Virus record (IMG/VR): IMGVR_UViG_3300033066_000693
Location: 192,001-256,000 of that record
Reading direction: 5' to 3' (one strand)
Length of the DNA: 64,000 bases
Source of the DNA: a virus
Positions 19,206-56,500 of the stretch are shown piece by piece. The stretch's first letter is position 1; each line of letters begins with the position of its first letter. Under the pieces are notes generated by a model. The model searched no databases. It was given only the letters and a program-made list of their open reading frames with translations, and had not been told where the DNA came from. Position numbers and translations under genes: made by a program.

Positions 19206-19231
19206 AATCTGCCTTCGCTCTGTATGACTTG

Positions 19232-19843: not shown

Positions 19844-19906
19844 AATCCTAGGCGAAGTCTAGTCTTGGAGAAGCCAAAAACGCCGTTCAGATACCGAACA
19901 GGTGCT

Positions 19907-20984: not shown

Positions 20985-21076
20985 GCAGTTTCTCCTACAG
21001 TTACAACAGTGACATACCAGACCGAAGTAGTCTGGTATGCCGTCATTGTGCTATCGTCATTTTGTTGAAAGCTCAG

Positions 21077-22150: not shown

Positions 22151-22197
22151 TTTTGGTTAACTCCTAATAAACGTCCCGCTATCTCGACCCAAAGGGT

Positions 22198-22635: not shown

Positions 22636-22765
22636 TCGTGTTGACTCCTCGTTCTAAGCTTTGTCCTCATCGTACCCATTTCAATAGATGCTATTCGAAA
22701 CCTGTACGATGTCTTCCTCTTTGTTCAACGGACCTTTCCAAACTCCTTCTAAACGGTCACAGATT

Positions 22766-40557: not shown

Positions 40558-41603
40558 AGTAGCATCTTTCGATAAGCGTCAACAAGTCTTCCCTTCCAAT
40601 TATGCTCAATCATGAAACGGTAAATGTTATGCTTGTCTTGGTCAGGGTCTATAAGCTTAGAATCTGCTATGCTGATAAGCTCAACTCCGTCTTCTCCCTC
40701 AAAGACTTCTGGATAACATACCCCAAGAACAATTGGCTGGTCCTTGTATTTCTCTTTCAGTTCTGGCAGCATCATCTTGAAGGCATAATGATCTCCCAAG
40801 CCGCAATCCAAGACTACAAGCTTGTCATGCATCGTCTGAATGCCATACTCTTCAAGTTTGCGATGGAATACCTTCTCGTCATGCTCCCACAAGAAGGATG
40901 ACTCATAAGAGCGGATACCCCCTCCCGGAGAACGAAGATGCCATATAACAGCCTTAGGGTCTACAATAAGCTTGAAGCCCGCCCTTCGCATTCCATAGGT
41001 AAACAGAGTCTCTTCTCTATGACCAACAGGAGAAAGTTCCATACAATAGCCATGCTTTGCCGCAGACTTGCGAAACAAAAAGCTGTTATTCAAATGGTCA
41101 ACTTCTCTTGCGCCTTCAAATCTAAACCATTGAACATTTGGTCTATTGAATATATGCTCTATCTTGTTAGACGCAAAATGAGAAAGATGAGTAACTTCAC
41201 CGGGAACAAGGATTAATCCGCTAACTGCTCCAACGTCGTCAGCTATGTTACTTACAAGGACTTCTAGAACATTTGATTCAGGAACATCATCGTCGTCTAC
41301 TCGCCATATCCATTCGGTTTTGGCTATCTCAATAGCTGCCTGATGATTATGGACTTGTCCTTTTCGTTGTCCGTAAATTACTTCGCAAGGTATACCCTTT
41401 GAATGGAACATGGCAAATAGGCTAGAGTAAAGAGGGTCCGGCCTCAAGTCTCTTTGCTCGCCATCGTCAAATATGATAACCCTTGCTGGCTTATAGGTTT
41501 GATTAGCGACCGCTGTAAGAGCAAGAGGTAGCGTTGTATGATACCTGTCTTTTGTAGATATCTCTACTGTTACTTCCACTCGTTTTGGTTTCTCATTCTC
41601 CAT
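40554..41603 (-). CDS. GT2 (GT-A fold) glycosyltransferase fused to a GT9 N-terminal domain
   Basis: N-terminal half ISTKDRYHTTLPLALTAVANQTYKPARVIIFDDGEQ (GT2 with DDG); C-terminal KLVVLDCGLGDHYAFKMMLPELKEKYKDQPIVLGV resembles the GT9 N-domain (kIlvirl.alGDvl.t.P.l.alk..yP.a.i). Confidence 0.55.
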   Translation of the reverse strand: MENEKPKRVEVTVEISTKDRYHTTLPLALTAVANQTYKPARVIIFDDGEQRDLRPDPLYSSLFAMFHSKGIPCEVIYGQRKGQVHNHQAAIEIAKTEWIWRVDDDDVPESNVLEVLVSNIADDVGAVSGLILVPGEVTHLSHFASNKIEHIFNRPNVQWFRFEGAREVDHLNNSFLFRKSAAKHGYCMELSPVGHREETLFTYGMRRAGFKLIVDPKAVIWHLRSPGGGIRSYESSFLWEHDEKVFHRKLEEYGIQTMHDKLVVLDCGLGDHYAFKMMLPELKEKYKDQPIVLGVCYPEVFEGEDGVELISIADSKLIDPDQDKHNIYRFMIEHNWKGRLVDAYRKMLL

Positions 41604-42312
41604 GCGTCATCTTTCTTGCTAGAGCATTAGCCCTAAACAGGCTTTCAAAAGTTCCTGCATCTGTCCACTCTCCAGAAACCATCTGGAAAGGCACCTCTCC
41701 TATCTGTAGATACTGATTGTTTACATCGGTAATTTCAAGCTCGCCTCTTGCTGAGGGTTTGAGTTTCTTTATGATGCTAAAAACTCGCCAATCGTAGATA
41801 TACAACCCAGTTACAACAAGATCAGAAACGAAAGCCTTTGGCTTTTCTACTATCGAGATAATCGTATCATTAGCAACTTGCGCAACTCCAAACCGTTCAG
41901 GAGTATTGCTCTTCTTCAAGAAAAGTTTCGCTCCCCATTTGAAATCAGAAACGTCAAACGTGTCTTCGAAGATATTGTCTCCGAGGATTACGGCAACAGA
42001 ATCTACCTTGCCTACAAAATCTTCTCCTAAGCTCAAAGCTTGAGCGATACCACCAGCCTCGTCTTGTATGCGATAGGAAATGCTTACTCCAAAATCTTTA
42101 CCGCTGCCAAGTAACTGAGCAATATGACCGCAATGCTCTATGCCAGAAACAATGAGTATCTCTCGTATACCCATCTTGATAAGAGTCTCAAGCGGATACA
42201 TGATCATTGGCTTGGAATACACAGGCAACAAGTGTTTGTTCGTGACCTTGCAGAGGGGATAAAGTCTTGAACCTGTACCACCCGCCAGTATAATGCCTTT
42301 TTTTACTGACAT
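41593..42312 (-). CDS. rmlA: Glucose-1-phosphate thymidylyltransferase (RmlA-like, short form)
   Basis: KGIILAGGTGSRLYPL...NKHLLPVYSKPMIMYPL...ILGDNIF matches the RmlA/RfbA N-terminal signature. Confidence 0.75.
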   Translation of the reverse strand: MSVKKGIILAGGTGSRLYPLCKVTNKHLLPVYSKPMIMYPLETLIKMGIREILIVSGIEHCGHIAQLLGSGKDFGVSISYRIQDEAGGIAQALSLGEDFVGKVDSVAVILGDNIFEDTFDVSDFKWGAKLFLKKSNTPERFGVAQVANDTIISIVEKPKAFVSDLVVTGLYIYDWRVFSIIKKLKPSARGELEITDVNNQYLQIGEVPFQMVSGEWTDAGTFESLFRANALARKMTHGE

Positions 42313-43160
42313 ATCTTCTCCAATTCTTTATATTTATCATACTTTCTTTCCAACCTATTTTCTCCAACATTACTGTATATCCATTGACATATTTTCAATA
42401 CTTGAAATCTTCCAGTATATCTCATCATATAATGATTAGCTTTTTTATTTTGACACCAGAGTTTGGTGGTTTCGATCCCAACGTACATCACAAGTCTTTT
42501 TTGGATTTCAAGTAGCAGTTCTTTAGTTCCAACAATTTGAAAACAATAGGAGTTTCTTTGCGGATAAATAAGAATACTTCCATCTCCTTCGAATACGCCT
42601 CTGATAAAAGCCCTATCTAAAAATTCTCCTTTTATACAATTAAGATATTCCTCGGCTCCGCTCTTCGTTGGTTTTATTCCGTACTCTATTAGCTTCGAAC
42701 GCAACACTGAAGAAGATATTTTGAGTAATTTCGCCTTGTATGTCTTATTTGTTTTCTTTAGATATGTACTAGAATTAAGAATTGGTCCTGAGTATCCAAA
42801 GAATTTTCTAATATACTCAAGAATAGATTGGTCTTTTATCGCTACTTTGCATCCAAAACAATTTTCATTCTTATGCACAAAACCGTCAGAAAGAAGCCAG
42901 CCTAAAATCCATGCTACATCTGTTGTTACATTATCTAGAGCATCTTCTCTTAAGGTATGAATTTGATTAGAAAGAAAACGATCTTTAGGCAATGACGCAA
43001 TCCCCAGCTTTTTCATTCTTTGAGATATAAACCACTGCGAAACTCCAAACTCTTTGGCTATAGATTTCTGCGATCTTTTCTCCTCAAAGTATTTTTTCCT
43101 GAGATCTAATTCAGAAAGCTCTATTTTCTTATTCTTTGGCATAAGCCATTTATCGACCAA
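42303..43160 (-). CDS. LAGLIDADG homing endonuclease (double-motif) with N-terminal helix-turn-helix, free-standing
   Basis: Motifs VAWILGWLLSDGFV and FIRGVFEGDGSI; HTH-like SIAKEFGVSQWFISQRMKKLGI; inserted between rmlA and the rmlD-like gene. The track start is TTG; the real start is more likely the ATG of MPKNKK 18 nt inside. Confidence 0.65.
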   Translation of the reverse strand: MVDKWLMPKNKKIELSELDLRKKYFEEKRSQKSIAKEFGVSQWFISQRMKKLGIASLPKDRFLSNQIHTLREDALDNVTTDVAWILGWLLSDGFVHKNENCFGCKVAIKDQSILEYIRKFFGYSGPILNSSTYLKKTNKTYKAKLLKISSSVLRSKLIEYGIKPTKSGAEEYLNCIKGEFLDRAFIRGVFEGDGSILIYPQRNSYCFQIVGTKELLLEIQKRLVMYVGIETTKLWCQNKKANHYMMRYTGRFQVLKICQWIYSNVGENRLERKYDKYKELEKICQ

Positions 43161-43239
43161 TACAGCAAATAACTTTAGTTTGTTACCTTAGTAAGAGGCA
43201 TGAGTCGGCTGCCAGTACCGCCAGCTAAAATGATTCCCT

Positions 43240-44100
43240 TCATGCAACCTCCAAGAGGCGTTCTGCTTCAACATACTTTCTTATGCAGGTATCGACAGCG
43301 GTAATCGCTGATCTCAACTGAATACCCTCGTCTTCGAGCTTTCTCGTAGAAAGAACGCAGTTAGACCGACGAACTTTCGTTATCGTGTCAAGTTCTTCTT
43401 CTGAAATGAGAGAGTATTTCAGTTTCTTTCCCGAAATCTCTTCATACATTTTGAGGATTTGCGAATGGAATATAGAGCCTTTGTTTACTACATTGTAAAT
43501 GCCAGAAACATCTTTCTCTATGAGAGTTTTTGCTACATAAAGAAGATCTGGAATGTATGTAATAGAGTTTGCAGATTCAACAATCTTGGAATAGCCTAAG
43601 AGCTTGGTCAACAAATTGCGAGGGTCTGGCTTATCTCCCAATGGCATTCGTATGCGAAGTTGAAGAGCATTCTGTCTGTTCAGGTATCGTTCAGAAACTA
43701 TCTTGGTCCAACTGTAATAACTACCGTCATAGTTTGGAGCGGTCTTTTCGGAATACCCTTCGCCATAATCGTCCCCTTGATACACGCAACCGCTTCCTAT
43801 ATGAACCATTTTCGCTTTATAAGCACGGCATGCTGTTTGAATATATGACGGAACCACAACATTCGAGAAAAACGTTGCCTGCCTATTTTCCTCGCTAGCT
43901 TCGCACCAATCTATATTAGGTCTTCCAGTCTTTCCTAAGCAGTTAATGACATGGGTTGGCCTGTAGTGATAGATTCGACTCATGATTTGGTTATAATCAG
44001 TAATGTACTCGGTATACAGACTTGTAGGATAGAATGTTTGAAAAAACTCGGCAAACTGCTTGCCAAGGTACCCTCCACCAATAACCATTATTGTATACAT
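43240..44100 (-). CDS. NAD(P)-dependent sugar-nucleotide reductase, RmlD-like (dTDP-4-keto-6-deoxyhexose reductase family)
   Basis: Rossmann MVIGGGYLG, catalytic YYSWTK (YxxxK), length 286 aa typical of RmlD; adjacent to rmlB. Confidence 0.55.
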   Translation of the reverse strand: MYTIMVIGGGYLGKQFAEFFQTFYPTSLYTEYITDYNQIMSRIYHYRPTHVINCLGKTGRPNIDWCEASEENRQATFFSNVVVPSYIQTACRAYKAKMVHIGSGCVYQGDDYGEGYSEKTAPNYDGSYYSWTKIVSERYLNRQNALQLRIRMPLGDKPDPRNLLTKLLGYSKIVESANSITYIPDLLYVAKTLIEKDVSGIYNVVNKGSIFHSQILKMYEEISGKKLKYSLISEEELDTITKVRRSNCVLSTRKLEDEGIQLRSAITAVDTCIRKYVEAERLLEVA

Positions 44101-44103
44101 AGC

Positions 44104-45066
44104 TTATTCTTTCAGCATATTACCCCACCATTCGTTATTGGAGAGGTACCATTCGATTGTCGCATCTAAACTAGTATCGAACCCGCTCTTAGGTTTCCAC
44201 CCAAGCTCATGAAGCTTGGTACAATCCAATGAATATCGCAAATCATGACCAAGCCTATCTCCAACAAACTTGATACTAGACTCATTCTTGCCCATCTTTT
44301 TGAGCAAACGTTTGGTAAGATCTATATTACTTACCTCATTACCTCCGCCTATGTTGTATACCTGACCTGCCACTCCATTCTCAATGACAAATGAAATAGC
44401 ATCGCAGTTGTCTTCAACATATATCCAATCTCTTACATTCTTTCCGCTTCCATAAACAGGAACTTGTTCATTTCTAGATAACTTGGCTATAAATAGAGGT
44501 ATGATCTTCTCTGGGAACTGATAAGGTCCAAAGTTGTTTGAAGATCTAGTTATGATTACTGGCTGCTTAAAAGTATGCATTGCTGAAAAACACAGCATCT
44601 CAGCAGCAGCCTTGGAAGCGCTATACGGAGAAGACGGACGAAGTATGTCCTCTTCTGTAGAAGACTTGTGATGAAACTCAAGAGATCCGTATACCTCGTC
44701 AGTAGATATTTGAACAAACAAGCTAGCATTCTTTTCTCTGGCAGCACCAAGCATAAGCGCAGTACCCAGAACATTTGTATGAAGAAACGGTAGCTCATTC
44801 TGGATAGAGCGATCTACATGACTCTCTGCTGCAAAGTTAACAACTATATCGCCTGAACGGATAACGTCCTTTGCCGTAAATCCGTCGCATATGTCCGCTC
44901 GAACAAACGTATAGTTTGGCAAAACATCCAACTCTCTCTTTGTTTCAAGGCTTGCAGCATAGGTCATTTTATCAATATTGACAACGCTATGCGTCCCTTT
45001 GGAAAGAATGCTTCTAATAAAGTTACTACCAATGAATCCTAATCCGCCTGTTACTACTATATTCAT
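44104..45066 (-). CDS. rmlB: dTDP-glucose 4,6-dehydratase (RmlB)
   Basis: IVVTGGLGFIGSNF, FAAESHVDRSI, STDEVYG, SPYSASKAAAE (YxxxK), RDWIYVEDN: canonical RmlB motifs in order. Confidence 0.85.
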   Translation of the reverse strand: MNIVVTGGLGFIGSNFIRSILSKGTHSVVNIDKMTYAASLETKRELDVLPNYTFVRADICDGFTAKDVIRSGDIVVNFAAESHVDRSIQNELPFLHTNVLGTALMLGAAREKNASLFVQISTDEVYGSLEFHHKSSTEEDILRPSSPYSASKAAAEMLCFSAMHTFKQPVIITRSSNNFGPYQFPEKIIPLFIAKLSRNEQVPVYGSGKNVRDWIYVEDNCDAISFVIENGVAGQVYNIGGGNEVSNIDLTKRLLKKMGKNESSIKFVGDRLGHDLRYSLDCTKLHELGWKPKSGFDTSLDATIEWYLSNNEWWGNMLKE

Positions 45067-48000
45067 GAGTTGTTCTTCTTATGAAAGCGATCAGAAATCT
45101 CAGGAGTCCTCTTGGACGCCATGTTTGAAGAGAACTTTACCGTATAGGTAATCTTCGAATCGCTGTTTTTCTTGAACTTGTATCCAGCCTTTGCGATTCT
45201 CACCCACATGTCCCAATCTTCAATAGAATCCAAAGAACTATCAAATCCTCCAACAGACAGACACTTAGCTTTATGAACTACGCTTGAGATGTATATAAAT
45301 GGACAACGACGCATAAACTCCAAGCCGGGATACTCCGGAGGATTTGGTATTCCGTCAGGATAAGCTATAGAACCGTCTGTGAATTCGTGCCTAACTTCTG
45401 AATAGACCAAATCAGCCTCTTGGAGAGCCTTTATTTGAGAAGATAGATGGTTTTCGTCCCAAACATCGTCGGAATCGCAATAAGCTATATATTCAAAGCC
45501 TCCGCTCTCTTTTATCTTGTCCAGAGCGGCGTTTCTGGCGGAGCTTACTCCTCCATTGGGTTTCTCAATAATCTTGATGCGAGAATCTTTTTTGCGCCCC
45601 AAAATGGTAGAAGCTCTATTCTCAAGGCTAGAGCCGTCGTCTACCAAGAACAGAACCCAATCCCTATATGTTTGGCTTACAATAGCCATTGTACTAGAAA
45701 CAAGCATGTCTTTATCATTGTAGTAAGGCATAACAATCGCTACTCTGCCGCTCTTAATCCACTTCTTCTGCAAAAACCTCTCTTGGTTCTCAACAATGAA
45801 CTTTGGATATGTTGAGTCTATGCTAACCAAGACTGGAACATGAGGAGGATTATCTCTACCGAGAGCTTCTTTACAGCTATCTATGTTCTGCTGAATCTTC
45901 TCGGCATTGGTGAACTCTGGTTTGTTAAGTTCTTGATGGGCATAAGATTCAAGCTTTTCTACAATCTTCTCGGCTCCGCCCATCCATCCAAAATGCCATC
46001 CTCCGTCTGCTATACGATCATTCTCTGTAATCGTTTGATATCTAAGGTCAGTTAGCCCATAGTTGACTTTCTTCAAGTTGCCGAATGTAGTTATGCGACT
46101 ATAAGCTCCCGGCCCCGGCTTGCTTATGCCAACGCTCATATTGAGATAGTAGTTGTACTGGTGCTGTTCAAAGTACATCCAGTCTTTCTGACCTTTGTAC
46201 TCTTGTATTTTTGAGCCTCTAGGAATCTCGTCAAGATCAGAAAGGATAATGATGTCGTTCTCTTGGCATTGCAGCAAAGAGTTGATCATAAAGTTGCGCT
46301 GATAATGCTCTCTAACCCAAGCATTATCTGTTTGAGGACACTCGTTTATGATGACATGGATAATCTTAGGCCAGAATCTTCTAAATCTTTCCTTGTTCTC
46401 ATTGAAGTAAAGGGGCTTTGGCTTACCAGAATGCGTAACATTCATTTCGCATAAAACGAAGTGATCTACGTAAGGGTCTAGCTCGTTCAATCTAACCTCA
46501 AGTATGTCTAGCTCATTGAAGAAACAAAAGCAATCATAAACCTTTGGCTTAGGCTTTGCTTTTTCCTTACGCACAAACTTGAAGTTCTTGGTATTTATGA
46601 GCTTTGGATCAAGCGGGATAAATATGTCATAAGCACCTGATGCAGGATTGAACATCCAGAAGCCCATTTGATGTTCTTGAATAGGAACGCAATCATAGCC
46701 TAGTTTTTCAATATACTCTCTCAGCATACTGAAGTTGTATTCCTTGTTTGGATGCAGAGTGTTATGGAACTCTGCAAAGATTGTCTTGCATCGCAATATG
46801 TCTCTAGGATCTGCTTTTAGCAGTATGTCATACTCAGAACCCTCGCAATCTATCTTAAGTACAACGTCATTATCTCCCGGGAAATACTCCAACGCCTGCG
46901 CAAGGCTGATAGCCTTGATTTTCGATCCATTTCCGTTTTCTGACAACTTGGCTACGGGACCGCCTCCTTCTAGAACAACCTCTGTCGTGCCGGGCGAAGA
47001 AACAGCCACATGAACAGGATGAACATTCGAGTATTGCTTCATGTTACTTACTAAGAGCTTATATGTTTCTTCAATTGGTTCAAACGAGACTATCTTTTTG
47101 GCTCCAAGCGTAGTACACAGATAAGAGAACATTCCTACATTGCCGCCAATGTCAAGAACGCTCTTGTTCTCTACGTCTTCTCTAAATACGCTATATGAGT
47201 TTAGGCCAATCACTTCATGAAAAAGGTTGCTCTCATACGCAAGAAATGTTTCTCGAATATCAATAGCTTTTCTAGGAACAAATATCAAACCTTTCTCTTC
47301 GAACTTCTTCAGATTGTCTCTTACAAATTTAGGATACGTTTCGTCAATTTGAACCGGGGAGAAAGACAAATCTCTTCCTAGAACGTCTTTGCCATTCTCT
47401 ATGGACTTAACTACGTTGTCGTCGTTGTTGATTCTGTCGTTATTGAACTCGTCATGCGCCCAGTTATTGATCTTGTCTTTGATATGGTCTTTGTCTCCTA
47501 AGAAGCTGAAGTGCCATCCTGCGTCTTCAAATACATGCTTGTAGCCATAGTCATTTTCCCCTCGGAAGTATTGAAGATTACGACCTTTCAGTTCTGCGTA
47601 TGGGAAGATTCTTACCTTATACCACTTGATGGGAGTTTCCAAATTGAGTCTGTAATAGAACAGTCTTGTTTGCAGACAACATATACCCATACTTATATTG
47701 TACTGCTTTACAACAGAAGCCCTAGGAATCTCGTCTACGTCAGAAAGAATGATGATATCATTGTCCTTGCAGTCCTTCAGCCCTCTTGCTATTTGATTGC
47801 GCTGATAAGGCTCTCGAACCCATGTATCCGTAGTAGGAGGAAACTCCTCAACGATTACATGCTCAATCTTGTGCAAGAACTTCTTGAACCGCTCTTTGTT
47901 CTGCTCAAAGTAAAGAGGCTTTGGCTTGCCCTGATGACTATATCTAGCCTCAGCCAGAACGAACTTGTCTACAACGCTATCTAGCTCGTTCAAGCGTATT

Positions 48001-51000
48001 TCTAGAACGTCTAGCTCATTGAAGAACATAAAACAGTCATATACTTTTGGCTTGCTAGGACTAACCCTATCTATAATTGTCAATCCATTGCAGTTATCAA
48101 ATATCTCCCTTATCCTCCATTCCTTATTTTCAGCCAAGAAATCATTAATTGCGTCAACAAGCCCCTTAGAATAGTTCTCTTTGAACTTCCAATCCCACTC
48201 TTCTCCGTCTTGGCTCTTATGCCCAAAAGTAACAGTATCATGCATTATGATGTACTTCTTTACTTTGGACGAGTGCATTCGTAGTTCAGCTAAAAGCTGA
48301 TCATACGAGTGCTTGGTATCAATGAATAGCAAGTCGGTAGGCTCTATCTCTATTTGCAGGCAATCTCTGGCTTCAAATGTGAAGTTGATTCCTTTGCGGC
48401 TTGCCTCGGTAGCCACCTTCTCCACAGCAGGACAATAGAACTTGTCATAAGATCTCATAATCTTAGGAAGTCCTGCAAACAAGCCCCATGTTGAGTTGCC
48501 AGTTCTAACCCCAAACTCTGTTATGTGTTCGCACTCTTGCGCATACTTCTTAAGAGTTGGAAGATGCTCATAGATGTCTCCTGATATCCCCTCATGATTA
48601 GTGCTTCTCTTCTCGTACTCTTCAAGGGTTGGGTCTTTATGCTTTTGCTTGATATAGAGAGCGTTCTTTGGCGATTTCTCCTCGTCATTGCTTGTATAAA
48701 TCTCTCTGAATGTTCCGCCTCCCTTGTGAACCATAGGGAACAAGAACAATCTCTCGTCATTCCCGGGAGACTTATCACTGTATGTGATATCATGAGGAAC
48801 TTCTACAAGAGCATAGCCTTCGTCTGCCGCTCGCTTGCAGTAATCAGCGTCTTCATGATAACCAATACCAAACTCCTCGTCTAGGTATCCTATCTTAGAG
48901 ATTACTTCTCGCTTGATCATAGCGCAGAAGAAAAGAAGATACTCGCTCTGTATATCGCTTCTCCATGACTTCCTAGCCCCTGTAATCCCAACTTTAGGAT
49001 TAGAAAAAGGAGCAGACAATACAGATATCCAAGATCTATCTAGTATCTCTGTGTCATTGTTGAGAAGTATAACATACTCGCCTTCCGCAAGCTTCATGCC
49101 TGCATTCGTTGGCTTAACGTATCCCAATGCCTTATCAAACCAGACAAGCTTGAAAGAAGACCCAAGACTCTCTACGTAGGCTTTCGTGCCATCGGTACAT
49201 CCGTTTGCGACAACGATAACCTCGACATTGCTCATGTCTGTATACTTGATAATGCTTTCAATACAAGGCCTAAGATGATCGTCTAGATGGTTGTATGTTG
49301 GAATGACAATGGAATACTTTGGCTTAATCTTCTTGCTAGGCTTTTCTGCCTCGACTCTCATGTTATAGCCCCAATGAGATGTGAACTGAGGCTCAAGCCT
49401 CTTGAGGTTCGTAAACCCAACGCCTCCAAGATGGTCAAACATGATTTCCTCATACCATCCAAATAGATGAGGATTGCTAACCTTTGGGTCATAGACAGTT
49501 GTACCGTATATGCAGTTGAGGAGAGTATACCTATCTATTTTGTTAGCTGCTTCAAAATGGCGACAGAGTTCTAGAATGTCTGGCAACTCAAGACATAGCT
49601 TTCCTCCGGGTGCCAAAACTCTAAACCATTCAGCAAGGATTGCTGACGCCTCATAGCAAGAAAAATGCTCAAAGACATGGATAGCAGATATCTCGTCAAT
49701 GCTATTGTCTGGGTATTCTAGCTTACGAGCGTCCATTTTTACGTCTGCGGCTGGGCTATACAAGTCAATATTGATGTACCCCGGCATAAGAACGTCGCCG
49801 CATCCTATGTTTAGCTTCTTTTTCTTATTGCCGTATCTATCAAGCAAGATAGCCTCGTTTCTTGCAACGATTTCCGTCCATTTTGGAACGCCATGCACAG
49901 TTTGGCTAGATTTGTGCCAAATAGGGAAATGAATCACATGGTCAGATGCGTCTCTAAGTCTATTATACTTTACGTCATTTGGAACTTGAACAACATCAAG
50001 ATTGGCTTTATGTAACTTCCAACAGTAGTCAATATCCTCGCCATATCCGGGATTAAAGATCTCGTCCAACAATCCAAACTTCTCAATGATGGTATCTTTC
50101 AACATTACGCAGAAAAACAACAAGAACTCGAAGCTTGTCTCGGCATGAAAGTTCTTAGCTGCGCCAGTTATTCCGGTCTTTGGATTATCTATGTAAGGCT
50201 TTTCCAACATTCTAAGCCATTCACTCTTGGGTTGTTCAAGAAGTATGTTGTCATTGTTTAATAGAACAACATACTCTCCCATAGAGATCTTGATTCCTTC
50301 ATTAGTTGCCTTTGTGTAACCAGCGGGGTCAGTCATCCAGAATAGCTTAAATGGATGACCCAATCCTCGAACATAGTCCTTAGTTCCGTCAGTACAGCCA
50401 TTAGCGACAACAATAACTTCAACCTCGTCAAGGTTAGTGTACTTGATAATGCTTTCGAGACATGGCTTGAGACAGTCATCCAAATGGTTATAAGTCGGGA
50501 TAATGATGGAATACTTTGGCTTTGGGTGCTTAGTAATCACAGATTTTCTATTGTGGTCAGTCATCTTGATGTCCTTAAACGTTATTTTGTCTTTGTGATA
50601 GATAGGAAACTCTCTATTGACATTAGGATTATGAAGTAGAGAGTCTGTATCAAAATCTAGATCATAGTGAATGTCAGTAGGGATTTGCTTTATCAGATAT
50701 CCGGCTTTAGAGAGACGAACGCAAAAATCAATGTCCTCTTCATACCCTAAGCCAAATCCCTCGTCCAATATTCCTATCTTATCGAAAATCGACCGTCGAA
50801 TCATGGCACAAAAGAAAACCATGTACGGTTGTCTGAATATCGTCTTACCATTGTTCCATGCTAAGCGAATATCTTTGTTTGGTCCAGTTATACCAGTCTT
50901 AGGATTTTCAATGAAAGGCTTCTCAAGCATATTAAGCCAATCGTTCTTCTTTTGAGGACAAAGAACAACGTCATTGTTGAGCAGTACAACAAACTCTCCC

Positions 51001-51251
51001 CTTGACGCTCGGATACCAGCGTTGGTGGGCTTGATATACCCCTCAGGATTTTTCATCCAAATCAGCTTAAATGTTGGACCAAGACTCTCTACAAAAGCTT
51101 TCGTGCCATCAGTACAGCCATTGGCAACGACAATGACCTCAACCTCGTCAAGGTTAGTGTACTTGATAATGCTTTCGAGACATGGCTTGAGACAGTCATC
51201 CAAATGGTTATAAGTCGGGATGACAATAGAATACTTTACGCTAGAACTCAT
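45063..51251 (-). CDS. 2062-aa multidomain glycosyltransferase/methyltransferase polyprotein
   Basis: Approximate domain map: GT2a 50577-51239, GT2b 49842-50516, class-I SAM MTase 49347-49817 (LNIGCGDVL...HVFEHF), GT2c 48672-49319, Methyltransf_24-like O-MTase 48072-48599 (EFGVRTGNSTWGLFAGLP...LLFIDTKHSY), GT17-like 47262-48050 (YDCFMFFNELDVLEIRLNELD...GKPKPLYF), FkbM-type MTase 46617-47234 (VLDIGGNVGMFS...KIDCEGSEYDIL), second GT17-like 45762-46550, GT2d 45066-45746 (VAIVMPYYN...LVDDGS...CDSDD). Confidence 0.7.
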   Translation of the reverse strand: MSSSVKYSIVIPTYNHLDDCLKPCLESIIKYTNLDEVEVIVVANGCTDGTKAFVESLGPTFKLIWMKNPEGYIKPTNAGIRASRGEFVVLLNNDVVLCPQKKNDWLNMLEKPFIENPKTGITGPNKDIRLAWNNGKTIFRQPYMVFFCAMIRRSIFDKIGILDEGFGLGYEEDIDFCVRLSKAGYLIKQIPTDIHYDLDFDTDSLLHNPNVNREFPIYHKDKITFKDIKMTDHNRKSVITKHPKPKYSIIIPTYNHLDDCLKPCLESIIKYTNLDEVEVIVVANGCTDGTKDYVRGLGHPFKLFWMTDPAGYTKATNEGIKISMGEYVVLLNNDNILLEQPKSEWLRMLEKPYIDNPKTGITGAAKNFHAETSFEFLLFFCVMLKDTIIEKFGLLDEIFNPGYGEDIDYCWKLHKANLDVVQVPNDVKYNRLRDASDHVIHFPIWHKSSQTVHGVPKWTEIVARNEAILLDRYGNKKKKLNIGCGDVLMPGYINIDLYSPAADVKMDARKLEYPDNSIDEISAIHVFEHFSCYEASAILAEWFRVLAPGGKLCLELPDILELCRHFEAANKIDRYTLLNCIYGTTVYDPKVSNPHLFGWYEEIMFDHLGGVGFTNLKRLEPQFTSHWGYNMRVEAEKPSKKIKPKYSIVIPTYNHLDDHLRPCIESIIKYTDMSNVEVIVVANGCTDGTKAYVESLGSSFKLVWFDKALGYVKPTNAGMKLAEGEYVILLNNDTEILDRSWISVLSAPFSNPKVGITGARKSWRSDIQSEYLLFFCAMIKREVISKIGYLDEEFGIGYHEDADYCKRAADEGYALVEVPHDITYSDKSPGNDERLFLFPMVHKGGGTFREIYTSNDEEKSPKNALYIKQKHKDPTLEEYEKRSTNHEGISGDIYEHLPTLKKYAQECEHITEFGVRTGNSTWGLFAGLPKIMRSYDKFYCPAVEKVATEASRKGINFTFEARDCLQIEIEPTDLLFIDTKHSYDQLLAELRMHSSKVKKYIIMHDTVTFGHKSQDGEEWDWKFKENYSKGLVDAINDFLAENKEWRIREIFDNCNGLTIIDRVSPSKPKVYDCFMFFNELDVLEIRLNELDSVVDKFVLAEARYSHQGKPKPLYFEQNKERFKKFLHKIEHVIVEEFPPTTDTWVREPYQRNQIARGLKDCKDNDIIILSDVDEIPRASVVKQYNISMGICCLQTRLFYYRLNLETPIKWYKVRIFPYAELKGRNLQYFRGENDYGYKHVFEDAGWHFSFLGDKDHIKDKINNWAHDEFNNDRINNDDNVVKSIENGKDVLGRDLSFSPVQIDETYPKFVRDNLKKFEEKGLIFVPRKAIDIRETFLAYESNLFHEVIGLNSYSVFREDVENKSVLDIGGNVGMFSYLCTTLGAKKIVSFEPIEETYKLLVSNMKQYSNVHPVHVAVSSPGTTEVVLEGGGPVAKLSENGNGSKIKAISLAQALEYFPGDNDVVLKIDCEGSEYDILLKADPRDILRCKTIFAEFHNTLHPNKEYNFSMLREYIEKLGYDCVPIQEHQMGFWMFNPASGAYDIFIPLDPKLINTKNFKFVRKEKAKPKPKVYDCFCFFNELDILEVRLNELDPYVDHFVLCEMNVTHSGKPKPLYFNENKERFRRFWPKIIHVIINECPQTDNAWVREHYQRNFMINSLLQCQENDIIILSDLDEIPRGSKIQEYKGQKDWMYFEQHQYNYYLNMSVGISKPGPGAYSRITTFGNLKKVNYGLTDLRYQTITENDRIADGGWHFGWMGGAEKIVEKLESYAHQELNKPEFTNAEKIQQNIDSCKEALGRDNPPHVPVLVSIDSTYPKFIVENQERFLQKKWIKSGRVAIVMPYYNDKDMLVSSTMAIVSQTYRDWVLFLVDDGSSLENRASTILGRKKDSRIKIIEKPNGGVSSARNAALDKIKESGGFEYIAYCDSDDVWDENHLSSQIKALQEADLVYSEVRHEFTDGSIAYPDGIPNPPEYPGLEFMRRCPFIYISSVVHKAKCLSVGGFDSSLDSIEDWDMWVRIAKAGYKFKKNSDSKITYTVKFSSNMASKRTPEISDRFHKKNNS
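50421..51240 (-). repeat. Intragenic duplication: about 100-nt near-identical segments at 50421-50520 and 51141-51240 (start of the GT2a and GT2b modules)
   Basis: tcaacctcgtcaaggttagtgtacttgataatgctttcgagacatggcttgagacagtcatccaaatggttataagtcggga occurs twice almost verbatim. Confidence 0.7.
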
Positions 51252-51306
51252 TCAGCGCTGCCTTTCGGTTATACCTTATCTATCGGTTAGGAAGAGGATC
51301 TAGGAC

Positions 51307-52299
51307 TTACTGGAAACGCATATCCGAGCCTCTGCCCTTAGAACCTCTTGGTCCTATTCTTGGAGTTTGAACAATCGGGCTTCCCTTTGGCTTATTAGCA
51401 CAACAGGTTTGCAAAAGCTCAAATGTCTTCTGAATGCTGTTTCCTAGCTCTTTATCAACTCTTGCAAGCTCGTCTAGGGTTTTGCCTGTAGAGATGGAGA
51501 TGGCAATGAGAATTGCTTGCTGTAGGGCGGTAAAATCGCAATCTACGACTCCGCCTGCCGTTAGAGTACGATTTGCATACTCCCAAATCTGTTGAGGGGT
51601 TATCGCAGAACTTGTAAGGGTTCTTGTTCCATACTCCCACACCTTGCGAGCGATTTCCAACCAATCGCCCTGCTCTTTGCCCCAGCAGACTCGTAGCGTT
51701 CCTGTATTGAGATCGACAGAGCGATTAGGGGTAGCTCCCTTTCGCTGCCAAACCTCTAAATAGTAGTATTGATTACCGACTACAGGAGGTATATTGCTTA
51801 CATCTGTAATGATGTACTCATAAAAACCCAACCTTTCGCTGTCTTCTACAAGAGGAAGAACAAAGTCCGTTTGAGTAGCAAGCGTATAGGTTTCAAACGT
51901 GCCTGTCGAAGGCTTCCATGCTTTATCCAAGTCTTCTGCCGAGAACAAAAGAGCGTAAAGTGTCAGTGCTGGCTGGTCGCTGTATGTAATGTCAAAAACT
52001 GTATCAATCTCTCCAACGCAGCATTCATTATTTGCGCAGCATAGAGAATCTTCATTGGTTATGTCTATGAATGACAAGACTTTAGAAGTATCGTTTTGGT
52101 CATAGAACTTTACCCCTCCGCGAAAGTTTTCAGGAACGTTGTTGTATTCCCAAAGATAGAAACCTTCGCCAATCTCAATAAAGCCATCGGAGATGAGGGG
52201 AGTCACGTTTGCCCCAGAAGTCTTGATAAGCTGGGCGCAAAGGGATACTCCGGCGTAACCGGCTCCCAAGTTTACTGATATTGCAATGTTGGATGGCAT
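51307..52299 (-). CDS. 330-aa structural protein, paralog (N-terminal 75 aa) of the 35665..36147 product
   Basis: Shared N-terminal module (see 35665..36147); Cys-rich CCANNECC patch mid-protein. Confidence 0.55.
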   Translation of the reverse strand: MPSNIAISVNLGAGYAGVSLCAQLIKTSGANVTPLISDGFIEIGEGFYLWEYNNVPENFRGGVKFYDQNDTSKVLSFIDITNEDSLCCANNECCVGEIDTVFDITYSDQPALTLYALLFSAEDLDKAWKPSTGTFETYTLATQTDFVLPLVEDSERLGFYEYIITDVSNIPPVVGNQYYYLEVWQRKGATPNRSVDLNTGTLRVCWGKEQGDWLEIARKVWEYGTRTLTSSAITPQQIWEYANRTLTAGGVVDCDFTALQQAILIAISISTGKTLDELARVDKELGNSIQKTFELLQTCCANKPKGSPIVQTPRIGPRGSKGRGSDMRFQ

Positions 52300-52318
52300 A
52301 GTTATTCTTCGACCACTT

Positions 52319-52915
52319 TCATGCTAAACCTACTATTGTTTTTACGCTAGCAATAGCAAGTCCGTCTATTGTTTTTACGCTGGCTCTAGCAAGTCCTACT
52401 ACTGTTTTTTGAGATGTGCTTGAAGCTGTATAGTCTATAGAAATAGAAAAAGAATCTATACTACAAGTACATGCTTTAGGGCCAGCCCTCCTCACACTAA
52501 TCACCACGCCAAATGTACTGGCATTCACATCTGTATCAGTGAGTGTGTTTCCCCACAAATTAGATGTTGAGCCATATGTTACATCAGTAGCAGCATTAGG
52601 CCAATTGGTTGCTGTAACACCTAAGTTACTACCGCTTACTGTACCACCTTTTACTAAAGAAACAACAACATCTCTACCATTTGTGGTAGCTTTTTTATTA
52701 ATTGTTACAGTGATTCCATTGATTGTAGCACCAGAAGGAACAGAAAAACCAAAGTTTGTAGCTTTCAGATAATGAGACTGTGCAGAGGGAGCAGCATTTG
52801 TTGCAAACGTGCTGTTTGTAGTCCCTTGAGCATTAGTAACATTAGACCACGCTGTAGTACCAACAGAAGCGTCATCGGCAACCGTACCTGCATTATTCGG
52901 ACCTGCTGTTGACAC
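52319..52915 (-). CDS. 198-aa Thr/Ser/Asn/Gly-rich protein ending in tandem 11-aa repeats (KTVVGLARASV / KTIDGLAIASV / KTIVGLA)
   Basis: ORF; the C-terminus is encoded by a 33-nt tandem repeat at 52322-52412. Confidence 0.5.
   Translation of the reverse strand: MSTAGPNNAGTVADDASVGTTAWSNVTNAQGTTNSTFATNAAPSAQSHYLKATNFGFSVPSGATINGITVTINKKATTNGRDVVVSLVKGGTVSGSNLGVTATNWPNAATDVTYGSTSNLWGNTLTDTDVNASTFGVVISVRRAGPKACTCSIDSFSISIDYTASSTSQKTVVGLARASVKTIDGLAIASVKTIVGLA
52322..52412 (-). repeat. 33-nt tandem repeat, about 2.7 copies (ctattgtttttacgctagcaatagcaagtccgt-like)
   Basis: Seen directly at the 3' end of the 52319..52915 CDS. Confidence 0.6.
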
Positions 52916-53527
52916 TTAAAATCTCCTAAGACTAGAATCTACAAACTTCAAAGCATTCTCATTTACTGGCAAGCCTACAAAATTTGCTATTCCTTGAATT
53001 GTTATCTCAGAATTATCTACTAATTGATCAAACTCTACAATTAACTTGGGGACATTAGCAATTGCAAGTTGCGCATTATGTACCTCAATAAGTTTTGCAT
53101 ACCGCTCTTCAGTATTAGGATCGTTTGCTCTAGCTCTCCAACTTTCCTTACTTTTTTCAAGAGGTCGCTGCGTGATAATAAGTTTTATATCAGGCAAATT
53201 CAAAAACTCATCAGCTAAAAATCCAATAAGATGGTTCTTGACTCCCCATATTATTCCTCTGCTCATTCGATCTTGAATGATTCTCCTAATCCTCAATCGT
53301 CCATCATTATTTGAATCAATAGGTAGAGTCCATGTAATCGGATCATTTTCATTAATTAGCTCTAAGGCTTCAGTTATAATTCGATCAACAAAAAATCCTT
53401 TAGCATTCCATTCTGGATCTGATTCAAATAAATCATCTCCCATATGAACACCTAAATTATGTAATATTCCAGCGATACAACTAGTTCCACTTCTTGGTAA
53501 GCCTAAAACTAAAACGCATGTTCCCAT
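52916..53527 (-). CDS. Sulfotransferase (Stf0/Sulfotransfer_3-like)
   Basis: N-terminal VLVLGLPRSGTSCIAGIL matches the PAPS 5'-phosphosulfate-binding loop (PRSGTT/PKSGTT); later IITQRPLEKSKES fits the 3'-phosphate-binding R-x(n)-S element; about 200 aa, as in small bacterial sulfotransferases. Confidence 0.5.
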   Translation of the reverse strand: MGTCVLVLGLPRSGTSCIAGILHNLGVHMGDDLFESDPEWNAKGFFVDRIITEALELINENDPITWTLPIDSNNDGRLRIRRIIQDRMSRGIIWGVKNHLIGFLADEFLNLPDIKLIITQRPLEKSKESWRARANDPNTEERYAKLIEVHNAQLAIANVPKLIVEFDQLVDNSEITIQGIANFVGLPVNENALKFVDSSLRRF

Positions 53528-53536: not shown

Positions 53537-56500
53537 TTAGGTATGAGTGATATAAGTCAGATCAGGGAAGAAATACATTCTATCAGCATGAGTAGCAATA
53601 CCGAGTACCTGAATTACATTATCGGTTGCGCTAGGCTGAGTTTGAGTCAAGGCTCCTGCTGTGGTTGAAAGATAAACTATACCGCCGACAGTCCAAGCCC
53701 ATGCATCATTACGAGCTATTCCATGCAGCAAAATATTGCCAGCATTGCTTGATGTTATTGTAGCTGTAGCCATTCCCATACACGGATAAGTAGCTGAACC
53801 ATCTGCGTCAGCCTTCCATACAAGACCATCAGATTTTAGATAAACAACATCTCCGAATGCTAGATTTTCTCCTGCTGTCAAACTGATTATTAAGCCATTT
53901 GCTGTTACGTCTGATCCCGGAACCGCTGTAAGAGACAAAGCTCCTGAATAACCGCTGTAAGCTGAGTATCCCGAGAAGCCTGACGAACCTTGCGTTCCAA
54001 TATATCCTGAGAAGCCGCTATAAGCCGAGTAACCGCTTCGACCACTATAAGCTGAGTAACCAGAGAAGCCGCTTATACCAGAGTAAGCAGAATAGCCACT
54101 GAAGCCGCTTAGACCGCTATATCCTGAGAAGCCACTATCCCCGCATATGGCTGTTATACAGAAATTTGCTCTTAGAAGAGTAATTACATCCGTATTTATC
54201 ATATTCTTAATGCGTATATCAACCGTGTCTGTTGCAGACAATGACAATACGCCGGTAAGAGATACTGAAAATATTCCGGTATTAGGATCTGTTGTTGTTG
54301 TTCTAGTGACAATGTTAGATTGAATACCATTTACAAAAACAGAGAAATTGAAGTTGACCGCAGTAATGGCACTATTAAAAGACAATGAAGCGTTTACTAA
54401 GTAAGCCCCATCTGATCCTGCAATAGCTTGACCAGCAGAATTTGTAAATCCTACTTGCGAACTTAGAGTTAGACCACTAAGAGAGTCCCAATCACCAGAT
54501 CCATCATATACCCAACCGCTTACTCCATCAGTCGTATCAACTAGTTCAATATAAGAAGCTACTCCCGGAGTCGCTGCCGCTCCGCTATAACCACTGAAAG
54601 CAGAGTAACCACTAAAGCCAGAGAAGCCGCTGTAAGCTGAATAACCGCTGCGACCGCTATAAGCAGAGTAGCCAGAGAAGCCTGAGACGCCTGAGTAAGC
54701 GGAGTAACCGCTGAAGCCAGAAGGCCCGCTGTAGCCGCTGAAACCGCTCGGTCCTGAATAACCACTAAAGCCAGAAGGCCCGCTGTAGCCTGAGAAGCCG
54801 CTTATGCCAGAATAAGCTGAATAGCCTGATCGCCCACTGTACCCTGAGAAGCCACTAGCTCCATCAACGCCAATAATTCCATCTGATCCTTTATATCCGC
54901 TGAAGCCGCTTATACCAGAATAAGCAGAGTAACCGCTGAAGCCAGAGATACCGCTATAAGCAGAGTAGCCCGAGAAGCCTGAAGATCCCTGCGGTCCTAT
55001 GTAACCAGAGAAACCGCTGTAGCCAGATTTTCCTGAGTATCCGCTGAATCCAGATCCACCGTCTGCCCAACTTGTATTACCAAATCCATCTGTTCTTAGG
55101 AACTGACCATTGACTCCGCCGCTTGTAGGAGGGGAGAATGAAGAACTATAAGTTCCTGCCTGTGGATATATTGAAACGGTACCAGTATTTCCGCTGTTGT
55201 ATAAAGAGAAACCAATACCATCTCTAAATTGAACAGGATTACTTGCGCTGAATCTCCATGTTGTTTCGTTAACATCATTTACTTCTAGTTGTAACTGCGA
55301 AACATCTCCGATTTTATCCACTCTCAAAATATCATAACTAAAATCACCGCTATTTGGGCTTTGTTTGATTATGAGTGATGAAGTATCATTACTTGTCGGA
55401 GTAATTGTATTACGAGTTGGAGAACTAGGAGCAACAAGAACTGCCTCGTTCAAATTGGCAGAATAACCGCTGTATCCTGATACTCCAATATAACCGCTGT
55501 ATCCTGAGAAACCGCTATAAGCAGAATAACCACTCTTACCGCTGTAGCCTGAGAAGCCGCTATAAGCAGAATAACCACTAAAGCCAGAAGAACCTTGCGG
55601 CCCAACGTAGCCTGAGAAGCCAGAAGACGCAGCCGCGCCGTCAGCGCCTTTATCTCCTGTTCTTGTAAAGCTTATTACAACCACATCATCAGTCGAGAAC
55701 AAAAAGCCAGATACAAAACTGCCTGTAACATAGGTTACCGGGATAAACAAGCCCCATGTATTGCTTCCGTCAGCAACTACCGATCCTGTTATTTGAAAAT
55801 CAGCAAAAACTGACGAGTTATCTTCTTTGAAAACTCTAATAGATCCCTTAGTAGTATTAGTGCTATCATCAATAGCATTAATCCATGTGGTTATATCTGT
55901 TCCAGATGAATTGAGAGGACTAATACCAACAAATCCTGCTAAAGTAGGATCTGCTGTTGTATTACCTATAGTTGTATTAAATGCCAAAACGCCCGGATAT
56001 GGTCCTGAGCCAGATATTCCCGACTCCTCGTATATATACTCTTGACTATCTCCGCCAAATGCCCCTATTAGACCGCTAAAGCCTGAGAATCCGCTTGTTC
56101 CAGTTCCACTATAACCTGAGAAGCCGCTATAGCCTGAAAATGCTGAATAGCCCGAGAAAGCCGAGTACCCGGAGAAGCCTGAGTAAGCAGAGTAACCGCT
56201 CTTGCCGCTGTAGCCTGAGAATGCAGAATAGCCTGATACTCCGCTGTAACCGCTAAAGCCTGACGTACCGCTGTAAGCTGAATATCCTGAGAAACCTGAG
56301 ATACCTTGCGCACCAATGTAACCACTGAAGCCCGAAGAACCTTGCGTTCCTATGTAACCTGAGAAGCCTGAAGAGCCAGAGTAAGCAGAGTATCCGCTTA
56401 TGCCACTGTAAGCTGAGTAACCCGAGAAACCGCTTATGCCACTGTAAGCTGAATATCCGCTAGAACTAGCCGAGCCGTCTAATCCCTTATCCCCTGCGCG

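Follow-up and report, generated by a model that had tools for sequence, protein, structure and literature searches.

A 64,000-nucleotide (nt) stretch of viral DNA, positions 192,001 to 256,000 of IMG/VR record IMGVR_UViG_3300033066_000693 (hereafter the window), carries on its minus strand (45063-51251) one uninterrupted open reading frame (ORF) of 2062 amino acids (aa), which starts with ATG and contains no internal stop codon. Its product, of about 237 kDa, is best explained as a soluble cytoplasmic enzyme, predicted to consist of six glycosyltransferase (GT) modules of the GT-A fold and three S-adenosylmethionine (SAM)-dependent O-methyltransferase (MT) modules. The source is an uncultured aquatic jumbo phage with a contig of 257,887 bp. 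Hidden Markov models (HMMs) derived from the modules of this protein and from related modules set the module borders and gave the order GT2-GT2-MT11-GT2-CmcI/MT24-GT17-FkbM-GT17-GT2 from the N to the C terminus. Pfam and these HMMs agree with the initial annotation, which had read the ORF from its letters alone as nine catalytic modules in the same order.

When the whole protein was scanned against Pfam, Glycos_transf_2 (PF00535) matched in four stretches (E 1.3e-78, 263 bits versus a cutoff of 23.3), Glyco_transf_17 (PF04724) in two (E 3.9e-66, 223.9 bits, cutoff 26), Methyltransf_21/FkbM (PF05050) at residues 1367-1520 (E 7.8e-11, 42.8 bits, cutoff 22.7) and Methyltransf_11 (PF08241) at residues 504-553 (E 1.3e-8, 35.8 bits, cutoff 21.2). 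RMNT_CmcI (PF04989) scored 20.5 bits at residues 974-1058 in the whole protein, under its cutoff of 23.2, and 25.1 bits, over it, when module 5 was scanned alone; the Methyltransf_24 match of this module was weak. The two GT17-type modules and the three different class-I SAM methyltransferase types proposed at the outset were thus all recovered over cutoff, PF04989 with its module scanned alone. Four GT2 modules are likewise present, but the opening KYSI[VI]IPTYNHLDD...VANGCTDGTK that had been ascribed to each of them is common to GT2a, GT2b and GT2c (pairwise identity 51-57%) and not to GT2d, which opens with RVAIVMPYYND...CDSDD, has no blastp similarity to the other three and belongs to another GT2 subfamily. 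No transmembrane segment was found in the giant ORF, whose highest 19-residue hydropathy mean was 1.53.

For a test of module integrity, all family copies of each module type were aligned and the columns conserved in at least 85% of copies were scored. Each of the nine modules in the window retains 81-100% of them. Among the motifs kept are D92, D332 and D732 in the LNND of GT2a-c, D1926-S-D-D1929 in GT2d, and the E/D-D motifs at residues 161-173, 394-406, 790-802 and 2011-2012, all of which presumably act in catalysis. The GT17 motif D-x-D-E (D1170/D1172/E1173 and D1670/D1672/E1673) is invariant across the family, and glycine-rich SAM loops are found as G483xG485 in module 3, E912-F-G914 in module 5 and D1367-I-G-G-N-x-G1373 in module 7. 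Judged by their conserved residues, all nine modules look like intact enzymes.

In sequence searches of the PDB, GT2d matched PglI (9jma), GalT1 (5hea), K4CP and SpsA, and the GT2 profile A1 matched K4CP (E 5e-24), 6p61 and GalT1. When the PDB was searched with profiles of the GT17 and CmcI-like modules, no homologue emerged by sequence; modules 5 and 6 were therefore modelled with AlphaFold and searched by fold. The model of module 5 (predicted local distance difference test, pLDDT, 88.9) is a class-I methyltransferase of alternating beta and alpha elements. Its top Foldseek match in the PDB was MeT1 of Mycobacterium hassiacum (6g7d), which we take to O-methylate sugars in the synthesis of methylmannose polysaccharide; cation-dependent O-methyltransferases came next (probability 1.0), and 597 PDB chains matched at E<=0.001, with O-methyltransferases leading. 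The model of GT17a (module 6; pLDDT 93.9) adopts a GT-A fold and found GT-A matches at probability 1.0. Solved structures are remote neighbours of it (template modelling (TM) score at most 0.47), and no solved GT17 structure was among the PDB profile and fold matches; annotated family-17 glycosyltransferases of uncultured Caudovirales superpose on it at TM 0.82-0.87, and so do pieces of multi-domain proteins from the giant viruses CeV-01B and Sylvanvirus. An assignment of the modules to unrelated folds, which had been named as the outcome that would undo the annotation, was looked for: the profile matches and the two models place the modules in the named folds, with residues that look catalytically intact.

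The giant ORF is a real gene under purifying selection. Nearly the same protein (99% aa identity, 2022 of 2046 positions, no gaps) is encoded in the same gene neighbourhood on contigs from four other Joint Genome Institute (JGI) samples; the annotated homologue is shorter through the gene caller's choice of start, the codons upstream being identical. Between the window and a sister strain (locus L170), 175 of 6189 nt differ, scattered and without indels (97% DNA identity). Synonymous changes account for 148 of these differences and non-synonymous changes for 27, a ratio of non-synonymous to synonymous rates (dN/dS) of 0.043, with dN far under dS in all nine modules. Because the ORF is gap-free in four other metagenomes and every module is constrained, it is not an assembly chimera; the doubt raised on this point at first was not borne out, independent assemblies having kept the ORF collinear.

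GT2a and GT2b share an exactly identical tract of 83 nt, downstream of which their DNA is 57-67% identical, and the longest run shared by the same two modules in the sister strain is 41 nt. An almost identical stretch of roughly 100 nt had been reported here and put down to recent duplication or ongoing gene conversion. The shared tract itself stands, at a shorter length, and of the two origins conversion is the one that fits. The window modules are 61-74% identical in aa to positionally equivalent modules elsewhere and 44-57% to their own paralogues (GT17b, for instance, is 65% identical to module 9 of the relative P0002 and 44% to GT17a); since the equivalents in other proteins are closer than the copies within the same protein, the paralogues are old and a recent intragenic duplication of GT2 modules is ruled out. 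The 83-nt identity accordingly appears to be the trace of a recent local gene conversion between old paralogues. A Lys-Pro-Lys linker found at four junctions was also considered as a recombination or cleavage signal and was rejected, as almost no relatives have the motif.

The protein belongs to a large family of shuffled modular relatives. A protein search with the giant ORF returned 272 matches at E<=1e-10, and the relatives of at least 1000 aa comprise at least 122 metagenomic proteins of 1150-3000 aa, on IMG/VR viral contigs of 124-494 kb. Our own HMMs found 4-11 modules in each of these relatives (11 in two of them), drawn from six shared module types and arranged in 50 different orders; for the syntenic P0002 (2990 aa) the count rises to at least 12 once precomputed Methyltransf_24 matches are included. 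A GT2abc module stands first in 120 of the 122 listed relatives and a methyltransferase module last in 86, and the small end of the series consists of free GT2-MT11 proteins of 351-358 aa. One relative (P0080) has a LAGLIDADG_3 domain within the modular protein. Among the matches listed, the GT2abc module is at best 39% identical to a cellular protein, mostly 28-35% (one genome for each of 185,579 species; best 80 of at least 600 pattern matches), and 45-70% identical to proteins on viral contigs, so that the family provisionally appears to be virus-specific. Bacterial multi-GT2 giants do exist, such as a 2769-aa protein in the cellular locus L024; module counts in cellular loci are unreliable, as the HMM often split one GT2 domain into two matches.

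The genes next to the giant ORF are predicted to supply its sugar donor (Table 1). The bifunctional epimerase/reductase is far closer to PDB entries 4qqr and 7jid, titled '3,5-epimerase/4-reductase' and 'UDP-L-rhamnose synthase', than to the bacterial RmlD 3sc6 (only 1e-9), and it scores 47 bits against TIGR01214, far under the cutoff of 224. We take 4qqr and 7jid to be plant NRS/ER and the Mimivirus L780 UDP-L-rhamnose synthase, respectively; unlike in those systems, the enzyme is paired here with a bacterial-type RmlA and RmlB. An RmlC gene is absent because the bifunctional enzyme replaces both RmlC and RmlD. The RmlA-like protein, RmlB and the bifunctional enzyme would together make up a complete phage route to nucleoside diphosphate (NDP)-L-rhamnose, and such a supply fits the rhamnosyl-O-methyltransferase-type (CmcI) module. 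The 198-aa and 330-aa products encoded between the giant ORF and the fibre gene upstream were considered as a missing RmlC and ruled out, having no Pfam, NCBIfam or PDB match; the 330-aa gene is kept in the closest relatives. Beside them, a 203-aa product (52916-53527, minus strand) has a weak Sulfotransfer_3 match (E 4.6e-7), and in a relative locus, L169, the stretch behind the cassette described below (17723-22704) encodes clear sulfotransferases, a carbamoyltransferase and a free FkbM methyltransferase. Such sulfotransferase-type neighbours make further tailoring of the glycan likely. The homing endonuclease gene between the epimerase/reductase and RmlA genes is absent at this site in locus L001 and present in L170; a second LAGLIDADG homing endonuclease gene lies at 27220-28029 (minus strand). 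The giant-virus neighbours of the GT17 structure and the plant/Mimivirus-type rhamnose synthase, taken side by side, hint at a flow of glycosylation genes between phages and giant viruses.

Two further genes accompany the modular enzyme in most of its viral loci. In a typical viral locus the modular gene is followed by GT2_349, often overlapping its stop, and about 1 kb further by ORF160. In most viral loci the gene immediately downstream of the modular one is a GT2_349 homologue, and 37 of the 47 non-redundant viral loci with enough downstream sequence have an ORF160 homologue in the same orientation downstream of the modular gene, usually with GT2_349 between the two. The modular enzyme, GT2_349 and ORF160 form a conserved cassette, and this cassette travels with (Gly-Tyr/Phe-Ser)n fibre genes. 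Neither these partner genes nor the fibres as a probable acceptor had figured in the initial annotation. An ORF with Gly-X-Y repeats was found in 37 of 89 viral loci, with Y nearly always Ser, and in none of 80 cellular loci (1.32 Mb); of the 32 non-redundant loci that span 15 kb or more, 20 have a fibre gene with Ser or Thr at 80% or more of Y positions. In the window itself, fibre genes of the same strand border the glycosylation cluster (40075-53527) at either end.

The three window fibres contain 62, 96 and 187 Gly-X-Y triplets, counted in runs of at least five. Their X residue is mostly Tyr or Phe (also Pro), and about 80-95% of Y residues are Ser. Prokaryotic collagens have Pro at 19-31% of X and Thr at 32-48% of Y positions (PMC8968730). 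The window fibres do not match that composition, and 'collagen-like' refers here to periodicity only. In the longest fibre a PA14 domain, of carbohydrate-binding type, occupies aa 692-820; the listed ORF opens with TTG, and the true start may differ. The fibre encoded upstream of the cluster has 1216 aa in the window and 739 aa in sister strains (L170, 2147-4366); as the giant GT gene is 97% identical in DNA between them, fibre repeats evidently change length quickly. Genes for 2OG-Fe(II) oxygenases (prolyl-hydroxylase-like, PF13640) adjoin fibre genes of the collagen-like or Peptidase_S74 kind close to the GT cassette in two distant relatives (L167, 4165-5453; L169, 30-665), in which hydroxylation of fibre residues is possible; no oxygenase gene was seen in the window.

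Among cultured phages, only Methylophilaceae phage P19250A (KX815270.1), a siphovirus of 38.7 kb, has both partner genes. Within its tail-fibre block it encodes a 1201-aa (Gly-X-Ser)n protein (7750-11355) of 280 triplets, 224 of which have Ser at Y, and directly after this fibre gene come a class-I methyltransferase, the GT2_349 homologue and then the ORF160 homologue. This is an independent occurrence of fibre and cassette in an unrelated phage type. The protein annotated as 'tail length tape-measure protein' in P19250A is the (Gly-X-Ser)280 protein, and the adjoining 'PE family protein' (4405-7182) is Gly/Thr/Ser-rich and fibre-like; both annotations look wrong.

Enzymes with a similar logic are known from two systems. 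A064R of chlorovirus PBCV-1 (638 aa) is an unusual soluble enzyme that combines a beta-L-rhamnosyltransferase, an alpha-L-rhamnosyltransferase and a 2-O-methyltransferase and builds a capsid glycan (PMC9614988). WsaE of Geobacillus stearothermophilus NRS 2004/3a combines a methyltransferase with two rhamnosyltransferase domains and has been called a 'rather unusual trifunctional enzyme' (PMC2943079). The giant ORF, too, fuses at least two GT domains to an O-methyltransferase in one soluble chain. With A064R it shares a viral origin and several transferases in one chain, A064R rhamnosylating and then O-methylating a virion protein glycan. Unlike it, the phage protein has nine domains instead of three, whereas A064R belongs to a eukaryotic algal virus, acts on an N-linked glycan of the major capsid protein, has, by description, a first domain (D1) resembling GT34 and a second (D2) of a new family, contains no GT2abc or GT17 modules, and has no known combinatorial family. 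The structure of A064R-D1 is solved according to a review (PMC9614988), and no such chain was among the PDB matches of the GT2 modules. With WsaE the phage protein shares a soluble fusion of SAM methyltransferase and GT-A rhamnosyltransferase-type domains; WsaE uses rml-derived L-rhamnose and caps with methyl groups a chain that ends up as an O-linked protein glycan. Unlike the phage protein, WsaE is bacterial and has three domains; its substrate is an undecaprenyl-linked primer, and its pathway relies on WsaP for initiation, Wzm/Wzt for export and the oligosaccharyltransferase WsaB, none of which is encoded in the window. Compared in this way, by description, the resemblance to A064R and WsaE is functional and not one of family membership.

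On the acceptor side, the collagen-like region of BclA in the exosporium of Bacillus anthracis/cereus carries a rhamnose oligosaccharide capped by the 2-O-methylated sugar anthrose (PMC6222408), and this glycosylation is thought to aid helix hydration and stability (PMC8968730). BclA and the window fibres are both Gly-X-Y filaments with a hydroxy amino acid at Y, BclA bearing many copies of its rhamnose oligosaccharide; the repeats differ (Gly-Pro-Thr in BclA versus Gly-Tyr/Phe-Ser), and the BclA enzymes are separate, single-domain and bacterial. Glycosyltransferases of mycobacteriophages modify the phages' own virion proteins (Freeman et al. 2023, cited in PMC12619734); unlike here, the targets cited there are the C-termini of capsid and tail-tube subunits, and the enzymes single-domain, with no collagen-like acceptor appearing in that citing account. 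Modules 6 and 8 resemble eukaryotic GT17 enzymes (MGAT3/GnT-III) and viral GT17 proteins in their strong PF04724 matches. To our knowledge, the only characterised GT17 activity is beta-1,4 transfer of N-acetylglucosamine (GlcNAc) to the core mannose of N-glycans. Unlike the eukaryotic enzymes, the phage modules have no membrane anchor, and the bisected N-glycan core of animals cannot be their acceptor; transfer of GlcNAc to such a core mannose is unlikely for them.

We searched the literature for the modular family and for glycosylated Gly-X-Ser phage fibres and found no description of either; the moraphage paper notes only four GT orthogroups. The initial annotation had held that few fusions of this size are described and none in a phage. 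This is right in that three-domain enzymes have been called unusual and that cultured phages offer no comparable record: among 50,697 phage records, megablast found no DNA match to the giant ORF or to 25 kb of the window, and no record covers more than 29% of the giant ORF at the protein level. Among metagenomic viruses, nine modules are neither unique nor a record, with at least 122 relatives of up to at least 12 modules. Neither the folds nor the principle of fusing GTs with MTs is new. The novelty lies in the size, with nine modules in this protein and as many as twelve in relatives, and in the combinatorial family, apparently restricted to uncultured aquatic phages, as well as in the presence in a phage of GT17 modules and a eukaryote/giant-virus-type rhamnose synthase and in the link to Gly-Tyr/Phe-Ser fibres.

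As to function, we lean, with little more than even confidence, towards the view that this enzyme family coats the phage's own Gly-X-Ser fibres with a methylated, rhamnose-containing chain by cytoplasmic O-glycosylation. Late in infection, the GT2_349/ORF160 pair would place a first sugar on the Ser hydroxyls at Y of the Gly-X-Ser repeats in the cytoplasm; the modules of the giant enzyme would extend this primer by one sugar each, several of them L-rhamnose, and the methyltransferase modules would O-methylate particular residues, often as a terminal cap. The prevalence of relatives that end in a methyltransferase (86 of 122) suggests a terminal methylation logic, as in the capping enzyme WsaE. 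The product would be a short methylated hetero-oligosaccharide, present at hundreds of sites per fibre. Fusion would hold the modules close together in a fixed stoichiometry, and insertion, loss, exchange and conversion of modules between phages would diversify the glycan. Like the sugars on BclA, the coat could lend stability to a triple helix that is poor in proline; it could also alter adsorption, protease resistance or recognition by grazers and hosts.

Several points weigh against fibre glycosylation. We infer the fibres as acceptor from gene neighbourhood only. (Gly-Tyr-Ser)n repeats may not form a collagen triple helix at all. About one third of the long loci have no Gly-X-Ser gene inside their 10-kb flanks. 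The viral loci probably come mostly from related phage lineages, and the co-occurrence of fibre and cassette would then in part reflect shared ancestry; of the replicates only P19250A is clearly independent, and GT2abc and GT17 modules are missing from it. Finally, rml genes, GT2 rhamnosyltransferase-like modules and terminal methyltransferases are together hallmarks of ABC-transporter-dependent polysaccharide synthesis, S-layer glycans included (PMC2943079), and the host could supply carrier, exporter and ligase.

These last points open a second possibility, to which we give a distinctly smaller though still serious chance: that the enzyme remodels the host envelope, acting with host machinery on a lipid carrier to alter the O-antigen, capsule or S-layer glycan. 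Its purpose would be superinfection exclusion or the masking of receptors from competing phages, which is the usual reading of 'LPS (lipopolysaccharide) genes' in aquatic phages; the cyanophage literature takes GT clusters as host-envelope remodelling (PMC12801897). WsaE, itself a soluble fusion of a methyltransferase with two rhamnosyltransferases, works in an ABC-transporter-dependent pathway (PMC2943079), and the relative loci L002 and L169 have genes for KDO-8-P synthase and a SIS isomerase and for sulfotransferases and a carbamoyltransferase, respectively, nearby. The window speaks otherwise. Pfam scans of its 64 kb found no priming phosphoglycosyltransferase, Wzm/Wzt exporter, flippase or ligase, and none of its 54 minus-strand ORFs encodes a polytopic membrane protein. 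The cassette lies inside the fibre gene block on the same strand, and in P19250A it stands directly behind the fibre gene within the tail module; the cellular GT2 identities, at best 39% versus 45-70% in viruses among the matches listed, also count against a host-envelope pathway.

The enzyme had been described as an assembly line. The metaphor is a fair one for transferases acting in sequence, short of any colinearity or substrate tethering. A stronger form, in which module order mirrors the order of residues in the product, seems to us doubtful: it would be a glycan code like the colinearity of nonribosomal peptide synthetases and polyketide synthases, with 50 architectures standing for 50 fibre glycans. 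Every clade of modules would then stand for a particular sugar, linkage or methyl group to be added, and phages would vary the surface chemistry of their Gly-X-Ser fibres through the swapping of modules and gene conversion.

That the ORF instead encodes a polyprotein, one chain cut into separate enzymes as a gene-packing device, would be compatible with either target and is improbable. The modules are indeed discrete (about 160-280 aa) and joined by short Lys/Pro-rich linkers, and free genes for relatives with one or two modules, such as the GT2-MT11 proteins, are found as well. No protease gene or conserved cleavage motif was seen, however, the K-P-K linker is not general in the family, and the characterised A064R and WsaE act uncleaved (PMC9614988, PMC2943079). 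We regard it as very improbable that the glycan is built on hydroxymethylated phage bases as a defence against restriction. Phage glycosyltransferases are known to glycosylate DNA (mentioned in PMC12619734), and the window has a DNA methyltransferase gene; yet the methyltransferase modules resemble sugar and small-molecule O-methyltransferases of the MeT1 and CmcI type, the cluster sits in the fibre block and not among replication genes and tracks Gly-X-Ser fibre genes, and no hydroxymethylase was seen in the window. An artefact, be it an assembly chimera, a collapsed repeat or a decaying fusion pseudogene, is the least credible of all, for although internal paralogous modules and an exact 83-nt repeat could mislead a short-read assembler, the ORF is collinear in four other samples without indels, dN/dS is low in each module, the conserved residues are kept and more than 100 relatives share the fused design.

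That the genome is a phage, as first proposed, is confirmed by window proteins matching PHROG tail-fibre and minor-tail families and by more distant relatives, which adjoin a T4-type portal and terminase or an M15 peptidase. The large genes of the window all lie on one strand with overlapping stops and starts, and the window also encodes PhoH, a DNA methyltransferase and two LAGLIDADG endonucleases; tRNA genes were not found in it. Elsewhere in the window, a 357-aa protein (26157-27230, minus strand) is a full-length match to Volactin (PF25216, E 2e-57, 195.6 bits versus a cutoff of 35), an actin-fold protein in a jumbo phage that is possibly cytoskeletal and used in replication or virion assembly. 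Four consecutive giant ORFs (5301-19133, minus strand; 1180, 1175, 1280 and 900 aa) matched nothing in Pfam or PHROG. A separate GT4 glycosyltransferase of GT-B type (4207-5304, minus strand; PF13692, PF00534 and 'GT4-conflict' PF20706) is encoded 35 kb from the main cluster. Positions 1-4200 are ORF-poor, with only ORFs of up to 109 aa, many of them on the plus strand, unlike the remainder of the window, and may be a regulatory or early-gene region or a boundary between gene modules.

Table 1. Coordinates of the giant ORF, its modules and the surrounding genes in the window (aa, residues of the giant ORF; conserved, family-conserved residues kept)
Feature	Coordinates	Strand	Evidence
Giant ORF, nine-module glycosyltransferase/methyltransferase	45063..51251	-	Pfam, own-family HMMs
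Module 1, GT2a	50541..51248	-	aa 2-237; GT-A fold; LNND and EED motifs; PF00535; own-family HMM 304 bits; 38/40 conserved
Module 2, GT2b	49860..50528	-	aa 242-464; PF00535; 38/40 conserved; 74% identity to P0002 module 2
Module 3, class-I SAM methyltransferase, Methyltransf_11 type	49338..49817	-	aa 479-638; PF08241 E 1.3e-8; 50/62 conserved, including GxG
Module 4, GT2c	48672..49331	-	aa 641-860; PF00535; 39/40 conserved
Module 5, CmcI/Methyltransf_24-type sugar O-methyltransferase	48066..48578	-	aa 892-1062; RMNT_CmcI 25.1 bits alone; pLDDT 88.9; 47/52 conserved
Module 6, GT17a	47247..48065	-	aa 1063-1335; PF04724; pLDDT 93.9; 47/48 conserved, including D1170-x-D1172-E
Module 7, FkbM-type methyltransferase	46686..47216	-	aa 1346-1522; PF05050 E 7.8e-11; phrog_8156 methyltransferase; 23/24 conserved
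Module 8, GT17b	45720..46562	-	aa 1564-1844; PF04724 best stretch 1564-1792; 47/48 conserved
Module 9, GT2d, different GT2 subfamily, classical DSDD motif	45078..45746	-	aa 1836-2058; PF00535 and PF10111; 45/45 conserved
83-nt tract in GT2a	51139..51221	-	exactly identical to 50419-50501 in GT2b
Partner 83-nt tract in GT2b	50419..50501	-	exactly identical to 51139-51221
RmlB, dTDP-glucose 4,6-dehydratase	44104..45066	-	TIGR01181 415 bits versus 365 cutoff; Pfam; start overlaps giant-ORF stop
Bifunctional NDP-4-keto-6-deoxyglucose 3,5-epimerase/4-reductase (NRS/ER or L780 type)	43240..44100	-	PDB 4qqr E 4.9e-41; 7jid E 1.7e-29
LAGLIDADG homing endonuclease, mobile passenger in the sugar-nucleotide operon	42303..43160	-	PF14528
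RmlA-like glucose-1-phosphate nucleotidylyltransferase, short form	41593..42312	-	PF00483 E 1.9e-53; TIGR01207 234 bits, below 360 cutoff
GT2_349, partner glycosyltransferase, candidate initiating enzyme	40554..41603	-	PF00535 E 2.9e-14; 41% to P19250A gp25
ORF160, GT9-like (GT-B C-terminal half), translationally coupled to GT2_349	40075..40557	-	PF01075 E 1.4e-6; 41% to P19250A gp26
Three genes between fibre gene and giant ORF: 330 aa, 198 aa, 203 aa sulfotransferase-like	51307..53527	-	
491-aa (Gly-Tyr/Phe/Pro-Ser)n fibre, candidate acceptor	38555..40030	-	Collagen PF01391 E 2e-35; PHROG tail-fibre families; Ser at Y 53/62
1216-aa (Gly-X-Ser)n fibre, candidate acceptor	53537..57187	-	PHROG tail-fibre families; Ser at Y 75/96
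1533-aa (Gly-X-Ser)n fibre with PA14, candidate acceptor	59192..63793	-	Collagen E 1e-89; PA14 E 1e-14; Ser at Y 176/187

Characterised fusions of glycosyltransferases with sugar methyltransferases stop at three domains; the protein described here has nine, in a family that reaches at least 12, is shuffled and is apparently virus-borne. Glycoengineering could draw on its modules as ready-made soluble GT-A enzymes and O-methyltransferases, the GT17 modules provide a soluble route to a first structure and activity of a non-animal GT17, and the cultured phage P19250A is an experimental entry point to the core cassette. Should module order prove to be a glycan code, glycans would be readable from sequence, and this would be the first glycosylated collagen-like fibre system in phages. 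If the fibres are glycosylated as proposed, the fibres with which many abundant aquatic phages recognise their hosts would be densely coated with variable, methylated sugars; this would bear on adsorption, host range, stability and grazing, and current structure-based predictions of receptor-binding proteins would miss the coat.

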